DNA of 62,886 nt from Haliangiales bacterium (GTDB taxonomy: Bacteria > Myxococcota_A > Polyangia > Haliangiales > Haliangiaceae). The notes below the pieces were generated by a model. It saw nothing but the letters and a program-made list of their open reading frames with translations, searched no databases and was not told the DNA's origin. Positions 44,815-50,541 of this stretch are shown here, piece after piece. The DNA lies in the NCBI GenBank assembly GCA_038321315.1, contig JBBQEX010000043.1:1-62886 (forward strand), written 5' to 3'. Made by a program: the position numbers and the translations under genes. Positions within the stretch are counted from its first letter, which is position 1; every line of letters begins with the position of its first letter.

Positions 44815-45408
44815 TCAGGGAAACGCGAACGTCAGGCGACGCGGGTCGGCGCCGGTCGCGGCGATCACGAGGCCGCCCGCCGGGGGATACGTGATCGCGA
44901 CGGCCGAGCTGCCGTCTCCCGTCAGGTGATCGAGCAGGATCGGCGCGGTGCACGTCGGGATCCCGCTCGCGCCGAGCCCGCACACGACGAGGCCACGATC
45001 GTGGCCGGCGTCGGTCATCGAGCCGTACTCGATGACGAGCTCGGGCTCGCCACCGCGCACGACGTCGTGATAGCTGATCGCGTCGAGCCAGCTGCGCCGC
45101 ATGCGGACGACCGGCATCAGGTAGCGGTGGCCGGCGAAGCCGAGCTCGACGACCCAGCGATTCTTCGAGTAGCCGGTGCGGATGTCCTCCCACGGCGGCT
45201 TGACGTCGCCGGGCTCGATCGACGGCTCGGACTCCATCCTCGGCACGTCGAGCTCGAGCGCGACGGTCGGCTCGGCGAGCGACCCGACCGCGGTGGCGGT
45301 GCGCTCGACCGGCGCGGGGGCCTGCGGCGCGTACTCCATCGGCGCGACGAACACCGGCTCGGGCGCCGGCGCGTGACACGCGGCGAGCACGACCAGCACG
45401 CGCTTCAC
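44815..45408 (-). CDS. Lipoprotein (197 aa), last gene of the Hsp70 operon.
   Basis: GTG start overlaps the Hsp70-B stop. Lipobox VLVVLAACHA. It is the C-terminal part of track ORF 44815..48285, the rest of which is an antisense shadow. Confidence 0.55.
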   Translation of the reverse strand: MKRVLVVLAACHAPAPEPVFVAPMEYAPQAPAPVERTATAVGSLAEPTVALELDVPRMESEPSIEPGDVKPPWEDIRTGYSKNRWVVELGFAGHRYLMPVVRMRRSWLDAISYHDVVRGGEPELVIEYGSMTDAGHDRGLVVCGLGASGIPTCTAPILLDHLTGDGSSAVAITYPPAGGLVIAATGADPRRLTFAFP

Positions 45409-48224
45409 GCCGGCGGCTCGGGCGAATCGTCGTCGAGGATGATGTGGAGGCCGGCGGGCAGGGTGTCGCCGAACGCGACGAGCTCCTCGCGCGCCTCGAG
45501 CGCGACGACCTGCTCGACGAGCGCGACCGCGCGATCTCCGCCGGGCAGCGTCCGCAACACCGCAGCGAGCTTGTCGCGGGTCGCATCGTCGAGATCGCGC
45601 GTGCGGTCGCCGGTGCGGCGGCCGAGCTGCGCGAGCGAGAACGCGACCTTCTCGGGCTCGGGCCAGCCAGTCCACGCGAGCAACGAGCCGAGCCACTCGC
45701 GCACCTTGGCGGGCGACACGACGCAGTCGAGCGGGCCGTACAGCGGCACGCGCGCCCCGAGCCGCGCGACCGCCCACAGGTGCGTGCCGTCCTCGCGCGC
45801 CTTTGGCACCTCGAGGCGGCGGATGATCTCGTCGCCGAGCTTGGCGCGGTGATTCGCGGGGAGCCGCTCGAGCGAGCCGACGACGCGCAGGATCTCGGCG
45901 AGCTCCTGCTTGCTCGGCTTCATCTCGGCGAGCTTCTTCTGCTGCTTGCCGCCCGGCAGGATCAGCTGCGACAGCCGATCGTAGAGCTGTGCCTGCTGGC
46001 CCTTGGCGAGGCCACCCGCGATCCGTCGCCACACGATCCACCACGCGAGCTTGCTCGGCTCGAGCTTGGGAAACGCGAGGCCTTCGTTGAACACGCCCCA
46101 CATGACACGCGCGCGCCAGGTGTCGAGCGGCGCGCCGGTGCCGGGGCGCAGCAGGAAGCCCGCGAGGTTGAGCCAGCGCTGCTCGTGATCCGCGGACTTC
46201 TTGCGCTCGGCGGCGACCTCGACGAGCGCATCGAACAGCGCGCGGTTCGTGAGCAGCGACCACTCGTCGCGCTTCTGGTCGAACAGCGCCTCGAGATCCT
46301 TCATCAGGGTCGCGAGGTTGCCGCCGCCGACGAACGCCGCGGCGAGCTTGGCCTTGGCCTCGTCGGTCCTGGGGTGCGCGGCGGCCGACGCGGCGACCTC
46401 GGTCGCGCCCGCGGCGCCGCCCGAGCGCATGTCGAACCCGAGCTTCCAGGTCTCGCCCTGGATCGGATCGACGCACGCGACCTCGAGCGCGCCGAGCTCG
46501 GTGATGTGCACCTCGAGCTTCACCGTGATGCCGCGACCGGTCTCCGCGCCGGCGTCGTTCGTCGGGCGACGTCCGCGGGCGCGCAGCACGGTCACGATCG
46601 GCGGGAGTTCGAGCAGGTCGCTGCCGTCGTCGAGCGTGTCGGCGCGGCCGTCGCCGATCGGCACCAGCGCGCCGGGCTGATCGTCGCGCGAGCTCGACGA
46701 GTACAGCTTGAACGACACCGGGCGGTTCGTGACGATCTGGAACTCGCGCTCGAGCCGCACGCGCGCACCCTCCTCGAGCCCCGACGGCGCGAGACACACC
46801 GCCATCTTTTTTGTCCCTGGGAGGGAACCCTGGTCGGAGGTCGCGGTCTCGACGCCGATGTAGAACGCGCGGGGCGTGCCGCCGCGGATCCGCGTCGCGA
46901 GGCCGCGGCGCACGAGGCCGAAGTACGCGGCACCCTGCGCGACCGCCATCTCGGGCATGTCGGCCGCGAGCTCGCGCGGCGCGCCGTCCTGCCACTGGCC
47001 GAGCTGATCGAGCACGCGCGCGCGCAGCGAGTACGGCGTCATCGCGCCGCCGTTGAACAGGACCGCGTCGATCCGGGTCGCGCCGTGGCGCGCGACGAAC
47101 TGCGCGAGGTGCCGGGTGACCGCCGGGTCGCTCGCGTACGGCAGCCCGAACTCCTGGAGGCCGCCGCGGGCACGCGACAGCGCGGCGTCGCGCGCGACGA
47201 CCGGGAAGAACCCGTCGAACAGGATCGCGTGGAGCTCCGCTTGCGAGATCTCGTCGCGCAGCGTGCCGCCGATCAGCTTGCTGCCGCGGCTCTGCACGAC
47301 GATCGGCGCGGTAGCCGGGGCGTGCCCGGACAACAGCGTCTCCTTGGCGAGCCGGCAGGCGTGGACGAGCGCGTGCCACTGAAGCGCGTCGAGCTTCTTG
47401 CCGCTCTTCGCGACCACGCGCTGCTCGACGATCTTCGCGAGCGTGAGGTCGAGGTTGTCGCCGCCGAGCAGCAGGTGATCGCCGACCGCCGAGCGCGTGA
47501 AGCCGTCGGCCTCGACATCGATCAGCGTGAAGTCGGTGGTGCCACCGCCGACGTCGAACACGAGGACGTGCTCGCCGGGCTCGAGGCCCTTGCCGCCCTT
47601 GGTCTGATCGACCCAGGCGTAGAACGCGGCTTGCGGCTCCTCGAGCAACACGACCGCGGGATAGCCGGCGGTCGTCGCGGCCTGCAGCGTGAGCTCGCGT
47701 GCGGCCTCGTCGAACGACGCGGGCACGGTGACCAGCACCTCCTGATCGACGAACGGTGCGTCGGGATGCGCGTCGTCCCACGCCTCGCGGATGTGCGCGA
47801 GCACGAGCGCCTGCGCCGCGATCGGCGACAGCTTCGCGCCTTCGCCTTCGCCCCACGGCAAGATCGCGGCGCCGCGATCGACCCCGGGGTGGCACAGCCA
47901 CGATTTCGCCGACGCGATCATCCGCTGCGCCATGCGCGCGCCCTGGTTGCGGGCCAGCTCGCCGACCACGGGTCGCAGCGCGACGTTCAGCTTCGCCGGG
48001 CGCCAAGGCAGCGCGGTCTCGTGCGGCGCGAGATCGATCTCGCTGGCGAGATAGACGAACGACGGGAGCTGGCGGCGGAGCGCGACCTCGCCGGGCGCGA
48101 CGAGCTGCGGGACGTCGAACACGCGCACGCGCGGATCGGCGGCGGCGGTGTCGACGAACGCGACGGCCGAGTTCGTCGTCCCGAGATCGATCCCGATCAG
48201 GTACCTGGTTCGATCGCGTGTCAC
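45405..48224 (-). CDS. Hsp70-family protein B (939 aa): actin-like ATPase domain plus substrate-binding-like region plus a ~330-aa C-terminal extension.
   Basis: GTG start overlaps the Hsp70-A stop (GTGA). Motifs: IGIDLGTTNSAVA, VFDVGGGTTDFTLI. Compared with Hsp70-A it has extra C-terminal sequence (…RWLNLAGFLLRPG…). Confidence 0.75.
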   Translation of the reverse strand: MTRDRTRYLIGIDLGTTNSAVAFVDTAAADPRVRVFDVPQLVAPGEVALRRQLPSFVYLASEIDLAPHETALPWRPAKLNVALRPVVGELARNQGARMAQRMIASAKSWLCHPGVDRGAAILPWGEGEGAKLSPIAAQALVLAHIREAWDDAHPDAPFVDQEVLVTVPASFDEAARELTLQAATTAGYPAVVLLEEPQAAFYAWVDQTKGGKGLEPGEHVLVFDVGGGTTDFTLIDVEADGFTRSAVGDHLLLGGDNLDLTLAKIVEQRVVAKSGKKLDALQWHALVHACRLAKETLLSGHAPATAPIVVQSRGSKLIGGTLRDEISQAELHAILFDGFFPVVARDAALSRARGGLQEFGLPYASDPAVTRHLAQFVARHGATRIDAVLFNGGAMTPYSLRARVLDQLGQWQDGAPRELAADMPEMAVAQGAAYFGLVRRGLATRIRGGTPRAFYIGVETATSDQGSLPGTKKMAVCLAPSGLEEGARVRLEREFQIVTNRPVSFKLYSSSSRDDQPGALVPIGDGRADTLDDGSDLLELPPIVTVLRARGRRPTNDAGAETGRGITVKLEVHITELGALEVACVDPIQGETWKLGFDMRSGGAAGATEVAASAAAHPRTDEAKAKLAAAFVGGGNLATLMKDLEALFDQKRDEWSLLTNRALFDALVEVAAERKKSADHEQRWLNLAGFLLRPGTGAPLDTWRARVMWGVFNEGLAFPKLEPSKLAWWIVWRRIAGGLAKGQQAQLYDRLSQLILPGGKQQKKLAEMKPSKQELAEILRVVGSLERLPANHRAKLGDEIIRRLEVPKAREDGTHLWAVARLGARVPLYGPLDCVVSPAKVREWLGSLLAWTGWPEPEKVAFSLAQLGRRTGDRTRDLDDATRDKLAAVLRTLPGGDRAVALVEQVVALEAREELVAFGDTLPAGLHIILDDDSPEPPA

Positions 48225-49963: not shown

Positions 49964-50541
49964 AGCTCGACTTCCGCCGGAGCGATGACCATGCGGTCGA
50001 CGCCGTCGGCGAGGCCGGGCAGCTTGGCCTCCATGACGCGCCAGCCGTGGTGGCGCATCGTGCCCTTGAACGGCGGATCGCCCTTGGCCTCGCCGACCAG
50101 CCGGATCTCGGCGGGGTCAAAGCCCTTGGGCACGGTGACCTTGTCCTCCTCGGCGCCGGGCATCACGGCCTCGAACGTCAGGTGCTGATCGAGGACCTTC
50201 TTGCAGCCGCGGTGGACGTCGCGCGCGGCGGCGCCGATGTCGGCGTCGGAGAAGCCATCGAGCGGCTCGCGCAGGAAGTCGACGAGCCGGCCCTCGCGCT
50301 GGAACAGGGCGAGGAACGCGAGCGCGCCGTCGCGCTGGTGCTGGGCGACCGGGATCTTCGGCTCGCGCACGACCTCCTTGATCACCTCCTTGACGACCTC
50401 CTTGGTCTCGACGCGAACGGTTTCCTTGGTCGGGGGCGGAGGCAGCGCCGGCCCGGCAGGCAGGTACTTCGCGGCCGCGGGAGGCAGCTTTCCGGTGAAC
50501 AGGAGCCGGAAGAAGCACGACACGGCGAGGACGAAGCGCAC
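49960..50541 (-). CDS. Membrane-anchored protein (193 aa) upstream of, and ATGA-coupled to, the Hsp70 pair. Possibly the DUF2760 family that accompanies non-canonical Hsp70s (from memory).
   Basis: N-terminal hydrophobic MRFVLAVSCFFRLLF. Stop overlaps the Hsp70-A start. Confidence 0.55.
   Translation of the reverse strand: MRFVLAVSCFFRLLFTGKLPPAAAKYLPAGPALPPPPTKETVRVETKEVVKEVIKEVVREPKIPVAQHQRDGALAFLALFQREGRLVDFLREPLDGFSDADIGAAARDVHRGCKKVLDQHLTFEAVMPGAEEDKVTVPKGFDPAEIRLVGEAKGDPPFKGTMRHHGWRVMEAKLPGLADGVDRMVIAPAEVEL

Follow-up and report, generated by a model that had tools for sequence, protein, structure and literature searches.

What do two Hsp70-like proteins do when their genes stand next to that of a small DUF2760 protein? 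Hsp70 proteins in general are taken to need J-domain proteins and nucleotide-exchange factors in order to work. The question is raised by a locus on the minus strand of a 62,886-nucleotide stretch from a Haliangiales bacterium (GenBank assembly GCA_038321315.1, contig JBBQEX010000043.1, positions 1-62,886), the whole of which we call the window; its G+C content is about 70%, and its proteins find their matches in metagenome-assembled genomes named Kofleriaceae or Myxococcales. Our answer is that the first three genes of the locus are a copy of a widespread, self-contained three-gene unit. We suggest that it encodes a self-contained pair of non-canonical Hsp70 proteins with a DUF2760 adaptor, acting on specific clients under stress or in differentiation, a reading to which we would give a probability of about 0.5. 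The genes, in the order in which they are read, are as follows.

49960-50541, minus strand: DUF2760 protein, 193 amino acids, GTG start
48221-49963, minus strand: Hsp70-A, 580 amino acids, ATG start
45405-48224, minus strand: Hsp70-B, 939 amino acids, GTG start
44815-45408, minus strand: fourth gene, for a lipobox protein of 197 amino acids, GTG start

All three junctions are 4-nucleotide start/stop overlaps of the ATGA/GTGA type (contexts CTATGA, GCGTGA and GCGTGA), and the G+C content at third codon positions lies between 0.91 and 0.93 in all four open reading frames (ORFs) on the minus strand, which argues that they are genuinely coding. The four genes are one real operon, and re-reading the ORFs gave the same coordinates, lengths and overlaps as a first-pass annotation of the window, with which we compare our results below.

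A widespread three-gene module

The genes for DUF2760, an Hsp70, and an Hsp70 with a DUF3731 domain are adjacent on one strand in the window, in the order seen at 47 of the loci assessed. These loci come from a scan with a DUF2760 pattern, one genome per species, which gave at least 594 confirmed species hits in about ten phyla; the best 80 of those hits are distributed over the Myxococcota, Acidobacteriota, Planctomycetota, Verrucomicrobiota, Gemmatimonadota, Beta- and Gammaproteobacteria, Binatia, Riflebacteria, Eisenbacteria and Xenobia. Fifty-eight loci among the best hits had at least 5.6 kilobases (kb) downstream of DUF2760 and could be assessed by tblastn. DUF2760 is followed by an Hsp70 and then by a second Hsp70 in 47 of the 58, with DUF3731 detected in 45 of those 47. 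Nine more, about half of them from the Planctomycetota, have DUF2760 and a single Hsp70, and the remaining two have either DUF2760 with an Hsp70-DUF3731 protein or DUF2760 alone. The annotation had spoken of a module conserved in several phyla, and these counts bear it out.

The same series is found on annotated plasmids from Bradyrhizobium barranii and from a Comamonadaceae strain, where the genes are labelled DUF2760, Hsp70 family protein and hsp70 family protein (the last of about 940 amino acids). Overall, DUF2760 was found in 11 of 72,556 plasmid records, mostly chromid-sized replicons of Burkholderia and Caballeronia, and DUF3731 is present too in 10 of these 11, about 4.3 kb away where coordinates were compared. 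There was no DUF2760 in any of 50,697 phage records.

The unit appears to bring no standard partner with it. When 1,379 flanking ORFs were clustered, no gene family proved to be conserved beside the module across phyla, and the only synteny was lineage-specific. The J-domain of E. coli DnaJ, used as a tblastn query, had no match in the window and matched 2 of 88 other records; no conserved neighbour family or flanking Pfam family was of the GrpE kind, with no search aimed at GrpE itself. Within the Kofleriaceae, an identity of about 75% together with synteny (kinase and Ddl-like neighbours) argues for a vertically inherited physiological function.

The families are already known, in that they have entries in Pfam and the genes are labelled in genome annotations, and the window copy adds one more member. 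Searching the full-text literature by family name or accession (PF10816, PF12531, IPR021212, IPR021030) brought up no functional study of the module, in keeping with its earlier description as functionally uncharacterised.

Two sets of small ORFs were seen close to the module in other phyla. Two of the two-gene loci of Planctomycetota have a small same-strand ORF downstream of the single Hsp70 (L039, 10228-10722; L083, 10646-11119), and the two ORFs share the motif …DGAV…L.L…DLA……Q..DVSR(Y/F)HP…; this product could be an alternative third component in that phylum. Two Competibacteraceae loci (L074, 7088-7243; L086, 3306-3452) have, just upstream of DUF2760, a small ORF whose product bears the J-domain signature …HHPDRG… and is 37% identical to the J-domain of E. 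coli DnaJ.

Two paralogues in a distinct Hsp70 subfamily

The Pfam model for HSP70 (PF00012) matches Hsp70-A and Hsp70-B over their first 300 or so residues only, at profile positions 1-281 of 599 (E 1.5e-21 for Hsp70-A). Both contain the actin-fold motifs IDLGTTNS and DVGGGTTDF, which the annotation had also pointed out. E. coli DnaK, its sequence checked against the PDB, was aligned with both proteins from the window and from two plasmid-borne loci, and the equivalents of DnaK D8, K70, E171, D194, G196-198, T199 and D201 are invariant in Hsp70-A and Hsp70-B alike. Because these catalytic columns do not vary, both proteins look ATPase-competent, as far as sequence can tell.

The two had been described as highly diverged, both from DnaK and from each other. 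The first half of this stands, with each about 23-27% identical to E. coli DnaK, while the second does not, as Hsp70-A and Hsp70-B share 48% identity across 619 aligned columns (E 4e-151). Neither has a closer relative than the other (identity about 45-48%, where that to DnaK is about 23%), and by this comparison they are close paralogues in a distinct Hsp70 subfamily. A neighbour-joining tree rooted on DnaK places the first-position Hsp70s of the 47 loci in one monophyletic group, with Hsp70-A of the window among them; tblastn identity of Hsp70-A to these first-position proteins is 45-81%, and mean identities are 59% among first-position proteins, 51% among second-position proteins and 45% between the two sets. 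The monophyly of the first-position proteins points to a single old duplication before the spread across phyla, with both copies retained.

Hsp70-A is colinear with residues 1-600 of Hsp70-B and ends after the beta domain. It consists of an Hsp70-type nucleotide-binding domain (NBD) and a short C-terminal domain rich in beta structure, after which no helical lid follows, and judged by this layout it is a lidless Hsp70. The hydrophobic linker of DnaK (389-VLLLD-393) corresponds to G(I/T)RIRGG in both proteins, with RIxGG as the family consensus. Their scores against the NCBIfam models for HscA and DnaK are 70-100 bits, where the cut-offs lie at 620-820; the top scores are 100 bits for HscA (cut-off 708.55) and 74 bits for DnaK (cut-off 648). 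Scores so far under the curated cut-offs argue that the two are neither HscA nor DnaK. No HscC-specific model was among the NCBIfam matches of either protein, and a curated HscC score is thus no part of this comparison.

The C-terminal domains of Hsp70-B

Hsp70-B is laid out as an NBD (PF00012), a domain resembling the beta part of an Hsp70 substrate-binding domain (SBD-beta), and an alpha-solenoid with DUF3731 (PF12531). The two domains beyond the NBD are

46434-46868, minus strand: SBD-beta-like sandwich (provisional), residues ~453-597, nine strands in the AlphaFold2 model
45444-46196, minus strand: DUF3731 domain, residues 677-927, within a predicted all-alpha ARM/HEAT-like solenoid of residues ~607-916

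The 330-amino-acid extension of Hsp70-B was at first thought to have no obvious homology, a view that has to be given up, since residues 677-927 match PF12531 (DUF3731, 'DNA-K related protein') with an E of 1.8e-82. The same domain is present in 21 of 21 Hsp70-B homologues checked. No sequence-level relatives of DUF3731 were found in the PDB or in Pfam (HEAT, Arm, Fes1). Hsp70-B is about 75% identical to its Kofleriaceae homologues, and over the C-terminal 509 residues the betaproteobacterial ones are about 35-40% identical.

Residues 431-939 were modelled with AlphaFold2 from a 53-sequence alignment, giving a mean predicted local distance difference test score (pLDDT) of 79. The modelled DUF3731 solenoid would be of the ARM/HEAT-like fold class, which it would share with the Hsp70 exchange factor HspBP1. 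For the beta domain, a Foldseek search of the PDB returned top matches that are nearly all Hsp70 chains at their substrate-binding domains (DnaK, BiP, HscA, Hsc70), with probabilities of 0.97-1.0, E about 1e-3, and target-normalised template-modelling scores (TM-scores) of 0.31-0.45. Comparing our alignment A3 with a single DnaK SBD sequence by hhalign gave no signal (probability 0.06). Because the profile-sequence comparison is empty and only the fold search is positive, the SBD-beta-like assignment stays at the level of the fold and is provisional.

The DUF2760 protein

The first product matches PF10816 (DUF2760), the accession that the annotation had correctly given, with an E of 2.7e-49 and 166.6 bits against a cut-off of 25 bits, over profile positions 3-124 of 124. 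Its structure model has a mean pLDDT of 91, and the following two parts stand out.

50494-50538, minus strand: N-terminal hydrophobic helix, residues 2-16 (RFVLAVSCFFRLLFT), modelled as helix H2-16, candidate membrane anchor
49966-50331, minus strand: DUF2760 domain proper, residues 71-192, Pfam match, pLDDT 96-98

Between the helix and the conserved C-terminal domain lies a linker rich in Pro, Ala and Glu, and the protein ends in ...APAEVEL. The plan is that of the family, which comprises 1,830 clusters at 50% identity (E <= 1e-3). According to our alignments A1 and A2, its members start with a short hydrophobic helix, in which a central Arg or Lys is common (xFFRxLF); there follow a linker rich in Pro, Ala and Glu, the length of which varies, and a C-terminal domain of about 125 amino acids with ten invariant residues and a near-invariant PAEVE(L) at the extreme C-terminus. 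Neither a J-domain nor a solved relative of DUF2760 was detectable.

The annotation called this protein membrane-anchored. The hydrophobic N-terminal helix is there, and the best description of it as a transmembrane span is borderline, with a Kyte-Doolittle mean of 1.38 over the N-terminal 19-mer. The same mean is at least 1.0 in 94 of 110 family members and at least 1.6, a transmembrane-like value, in 59 of the 110, and some members have unmistakable transmembrane helices. Association of the DUF2760 protein with the membrane is thus a reasonable inference.

The fourth gene and the A-B junction

The annotation also proposed that all four products form a stoichiometric complex, but for the 197-amino-acid protein this is not supported. 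Among 5.8 billion proteins it has only 2 homologues, 71% and 62% identical to it, each encoded immediately after an Hsp70-B gene that it overlaps in the same way. The gene is not found downstream of Hsp70-B in close Kofleriaceae (loci L006 and L007) nor in the loci of other phyla, and we have ruled it out as a component of the module. The protein starts with MKRVLVVLAAC, in which L-A-A-C is a lipobox with the cysteine at position 11, conserved in both homologues, after an unusually short putative signal peptide; no family in Pfam, NCBIfam or PADLOC matches it. As a putative lipoprotein it is unlikely to be a stoichiometric partner because export would part it from the cytoplasmic Hsp70s. On its distribution, the gene is best taken as a lineage-specific add-on to the module.

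Strict translational coupling, the other premise of the proposed complex, is confined to the window genome. Kofleriaceae loci L006, L007, L008-L010, L014 and L015 have 1.3-5.4 kb of small genes between Hsp70-A and Hsp70-B (for example L006, 8472-10001, and L007, 6234-10001), among them an OmpA-family gene, a YgaP-like gene with a transmembrane segment, and a recurrent 157-amino-acid ORF without a Pfam family, and in L009 the Hsp70-B gene is inverted. Because relatives show gaps or inserts, the tight four-gene overlap is a trait of this genome and not of the module. In the Kofleriaceae, insertions seem to gather at the A-B junction as at a hotspot, and the window holds the compact form. The window copy is, then, an ordinary representative of the module, peculiar only in its very tight overlaps and its appended orphan lipobox gene.

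The module in Myxococcus xanthus and a possible copy in Vibrio cholerae

Myxococcus xanthus DK1622 has, on one strand, genes for a DUF2760 protein (208 amino acids), an Hsp70 (620 amino acids) and an Hsp70 with DUF3731 (925 amino acids, ABF92794.1). ABF92794.1 is 43% identical to Hsp70-B of the window over its full length, and it falls into one 90% cluster with the Hsp70-B proteins from M. dinghuensis and M. eversor. Very probably it is MXAN_5323, as strain and the 925-amino-acid length are identical, an equation made without an accession match. MXAN_5323 has been described as a 925-amino-acid cd10170 Hsp70 (Pan et al. 2021, PMC8265645). The deletion mutant is viable, sporulates less, and is both slower to recover from H2O2 and less likely to survive it; its motility, predation and fruiting are normal (PMC8265645). 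The gene is up-regulated during development, and where hsp70 expression after heat shock is reported as unchanged or decreased, it is listed as one of two genes that depart from this (PMC8265645). Its operon partners go unmentioned there, and of the trio only the third gene was deleted.

In Vibrio cholerae, VC1373 and VC1374 are annotated as 'DnaK-related protein' and the VC1375 promoter is HapR-activated, an arrangement compatible with the module. As putative orthologues only, these genes carry no weight as evidence here.

What the module may do

The reading that we prefer is that Hsp70-A and Hsp70-B are both active ATPases of the Hsp70 type and would work as a heteromeric pair, much as Hsp70-Hsp110 or Ssb-Ssz1 do. 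The DUF2760 protein would sit at the cytoplasmic face of the inner membrane by way of its N-terminal hydrophobic helix, and its C-terminal domain, held at the end of the flexible Pro-rich linker, might recruit or regulate the A-B pair, or do both, in place of J-domain and GrpE partners. The solenoid of Hsp70-B could be a platform for clients or adaptors, or else a built-in nucleotide-exchange element, and its putative SBD-beta-like domain would give Hsp70-B a capacity to bind clients. The output would be ATP-driven remodelling of specific membrane-proximal clients under stress or in differentiation and not general folding. Complex formation, membrane tethering, the co-chaperone role of DUF2760 and the nature of the clients are things that we infer.

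Several observations weigh against this reading. Contact among Hsp70-A, Hsp70-B and DUF2760 would have to be assumed, and what speaks for an A-B heterodimer is the co-inheritance of the pair and nothing else. The module can do without the pair, as nine of the 58 assessed loci have a single Hsp70, and Kofleriaceae relatives tolerate kilobases of inserted genes that part A from B. The helix of the window's DUF2760 protein is a short one, of some 15 residues with an Arg in the middle, and no more than borderline hydrophobic; it could equally be an amphipathic helix or a client-like peptide bound by an Hsp70. The DUF2760 fold matches no known co-chaperone and is neither GrpE-like nor J-like. The SBD-like call leans on modest TM-scores and on a model with a mean pLDDT of 79, and what the predicted solenoid has in common with HspBP1 is general to proteins with ARM/HEAT repeats, importins outscoring HspBP1. 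Finally, the MXAN_5323 phenotypes say little about a specific role because they are mild and are shared with deletions of unrelated Hsp70 paralogues.

The proposal can be taken further. The trio might be an Hsp70 machine that is tethered to the membrane and works on its own, independently of J-proteins and of GrpE, with DUF2760 as a new class of co-chaperone or anchor and the DUF3731 solenoid as a built-in exchange or adaptor element; it would have arisen separately as a bacterial counterpart of the Hsp70 pairs and triads of eukaryotes, and hundreds of diderm species would have kept it. We put this forward tentatively, and in its full extent we think it somewhat unlikely.

Other readings deserve weighing. 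Hsp70-A and Hsp70-B might be accessory co-chaperones of the housekeeping DnaK, that is, Hsp110-like enhancers of exchange or disaggregation that act through NBD-NBD contacts, with DUF2760 as a localiser only. Such a role has been proposed generically for bacterial DnaK derivatives in a 2026 review (PMC13580251). It would agree with the lack of J-domain and GrpE genes in the module (for GrpE, again, no search was aimed at it), and with M. xanthus deletion phenotypes that overlap with those of other Hsp70 paralogues. Yet two paralogues and a dedicated third protein have been kept as a unit across phyla, which suggests that they are one another's partners, and a pure exchange factor would need neither the putative SBD-like domain nor the full catalytic set that both proteins have. 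We consider this reading unlikely.

An assignment to conflict or anti-phage defence, with Hsp70-like NTPases and a HEAT-like domain as sensors or switches, is improbable in our view. Its precedent is CnuD, which has a similar domain recipe of Hsp70-like NBD/SBD and HEAT-like repeats (PMC11090510). A case for it comes from plasmid pTs485 of Ca. Thiodictyon syntrophicum (L001, 340309-356677), where a two-gene variant of DUF2760 and an Hsp70, with no DUF3731 partner, has a VapC toxin and annotated anti-phage genes (DUF1156, PLD-like) to one side of it and a TIR-domain protein to the other. The module is also found on two conjugative plasmids, variable small genes accumulate at the A-B junction of the Kofleriaceae, and there is a weak PADLOC match to the candidate PDC-M61B (E 1e-5 over about 90 NBD residues, the other match having E 5e-3). 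Nothing in PADLOC-DB v2 is a convincing match, however, and neither an effector domain (nuclease, TIR or pore-former) nor McrB/McrC is encoded in or beside the operon. The phage records, as noted, have no occurrence, and the 11 plasmid records are mostly very large, non-mobilizable, chromid-size replicons of 0.5-3.5 Mb. Defence islands are patchy, whereas this module is conserved vertically and in synteny across the loci examined (75% identity in the Kofleriaceae, at least 90% in the Myxococcaceae), and its ATPase motifs are intact where those of CnuD are degenerate (PMC11090510).

It is very improbable that the two proteins are membrane-attached actin-fold (ASKHA) elements of a cytoskeleton or scaffold, tethered by DUF2760 in the manner of the amphipathic helices of MreB and FtsA. 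Weak Pfam and NCBIfam matches to the actin-like families MreB and BeeR would fit, as would the hydrophobic N-terminal helix of DUF2760, but Hsp70 models score 69-77 bits against 26-31 bits for MreB (gathering score 27, with Hsp70-A just above it and Hsp70-B just below), the Hsp70-specific catalytic residues Lys70 and Glu171 are invariant, and the NBD is followed by what is provisionally an SBD-beta-like fold, typical of Hsp70.

That they are ordinary HscA/HscC-type chaperones with J-domain and GrpE partners nearby is effectively refuted for the window locus: HscA and DnaK models are the best NCBIfam matches by E-value, and an HPD-containing J-domain ORF does lie just upstream of DUF2760 in the two Competibacteraceae loci, but the scores of 70-100 bits against cut-offs of 620-820, the replaced VLLLD linker, the missing lid of Hsp70-A, the solenoid after the beta domain of Hsp70-B, the lack of a J-domain in the window and in 87 of 89 records, and the lack of a conserved neighbouring family all speak against it. 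The annotation had itself named such a grouping, beside J-domain or GrpE genes and with a first product unrelated to DUF2760, as what would count against its proposal; what we found is a PF10816 match, low scores and a window with no J-domain.

Returning to the Hsp70 pair with its DUF2760 adaptor, interest attaches to the module as a whole and not to its instance in the window. Bacterial DnaK derivatives have been called unexplored 'dark matter' (2026 review, PMC13580251), and this module is among the more clearly delimited groups of them: a fixed trio, in at least about 600 species, with two Pfam domains of unknown function. Defining the trio as a unit gives a testable entry to how Hsp70 machines rewire without canonical co-chaperones, and it bears as well on what Hsp70s do at the membrane in stress or development. 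Tractable hosts are at hand in M. xanthus, Burkholderia and Variovorax, and probably in V. cholerae (VC1373-1375).

Flanking genes and signals

The surroundings of the operon in the window are as follows.

40468-42815, plus strand: two tandem SPFH/Band_7 genes, a few kb from the operon
43332-44813, plus strand: convergent ORF, 493 amino acids, no Pfam family
50662-51477, plus strand: divergent gene for a Cys-rich lipobox protein, 271 amino acids (MTRLALVLFAASLGAC...), no Pfam family
51496-53313: Ser/Thr kinase gene
53258-54421: D-Ala-D-Ala-ligase-like ATP-grasp gene

One base (44814) separates the stop codon of the convergent ORF (44813) from that of the lipobox gene (44815), so there is no space for a terminator between them. 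Scans of 44300-51000 for sigma-70 promoters and intrinsic terminators found none. At 50590-50599 on the minus strand, about 50-90 nucleotides upstream of the DUF2760 start, there is a box reading CAGATTT(C/T)CG that is common to the window and to three Kofleriaceae loci, L008, L014 and L010 (one base off in L010; alignment A6). Homologues of the 271-amino-acid Cys-rich protein occupy the equivalent position in Kofleriaceae loci L007, L008, L010, L015 and L021, and tandem SPFH/Band_7 genes are likewise near the module in the Kofleriaceae relative L007 (14762-17049). The SPFH/Band_7 pair, the kinase and the ATP-grasp gene make up a lineage-specific synteny that flanks the module. Elsewhere in the window, G+C content peaks at 6001-8000 (0.769, against about 0.69-0.72 in the rest).

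Comparison with known systems

The StkA-StkB-StkC system of M. xanthus, which consists of an Hsp70-like exopolysaccharide regulator, an SCP2-family protein and a small PhaE-like protein (PMC4319316), resembles the window operon in that a non-canonical myxobacterial Hsp70 is encoded with small partner proteins. We rejected the stk locus as a match, since StkB is of the SCP2 family, StkC is PhaE-like, and DUF2760, a second Hsp70 and DUF3731 are all missing.

CnuD, of the McrBC-related CnuCD (Type III CoCoNuT) systems, has Hsp70-like NBD/SBD parts followed by HEAT-like helical repeats (PMC11090510). Compared by description, this is the domain recipe of Hsp70-B; CnuD, however, is accompanied by McrB-like GTPases, DUF2357 and HEPN nucleases and has degenerate ATPase motifs, whereas the window has no such partners and its motifs are intact. 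With the armadillo-repeat nucleotide-exchange factors HspBP1 and Fes1, the solenoid of Hsp70-B would have the ARM/HEAT fold class in common. From the DnaK and HscA families both proteins are set apart by scores far beneath all cut-offs.

E. coli HscC is said, after Kluck et al. in 2002, to work with the membrane-anchored J-proteins DjlC and DjlB. Like the module, this is a case of a specialised non-heat-shock Hsp70, shortened in its lid, that is encoded beside a dedicated co-factor (membrane-anchored there, putatively so in the module), although the partner of HscC is a genuine J-domain protein and HscC is a single Hsp70 where the module has a pair.

The locus of M. xanthus DK1622 has no overlapping start and stop codons and no lipoprotein gene downstream, unlike the window, and the two agree in their three families, in the order of these and in the use of a single strand.

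Cooperation between diverged Hsp70 paralogues is familiar from the Hsp70-Hsp110 pair and from the yeast 'chaperone triad' of Ssb with Ssz1-Zuo1, the ribosome-associated complex (RAC). The Hsp110 model is taken up in the 2026 review as well (PMC13580251). There is no orthology between these systems and ours, and the extension of Hsp70-B is a predicted ARM/HEAT solenoid and not an extended SBD; compared with RAC, the putative DUF2760 tether has no J-domain, and heterodimerisation in the window system is putative. What they would share is a common design, in which one of two paralogues is enlarged at its C-terminus and a third protein tethers the assembly to its place of action, the ribosome in the case of RAC and, putatively, the membrane here.

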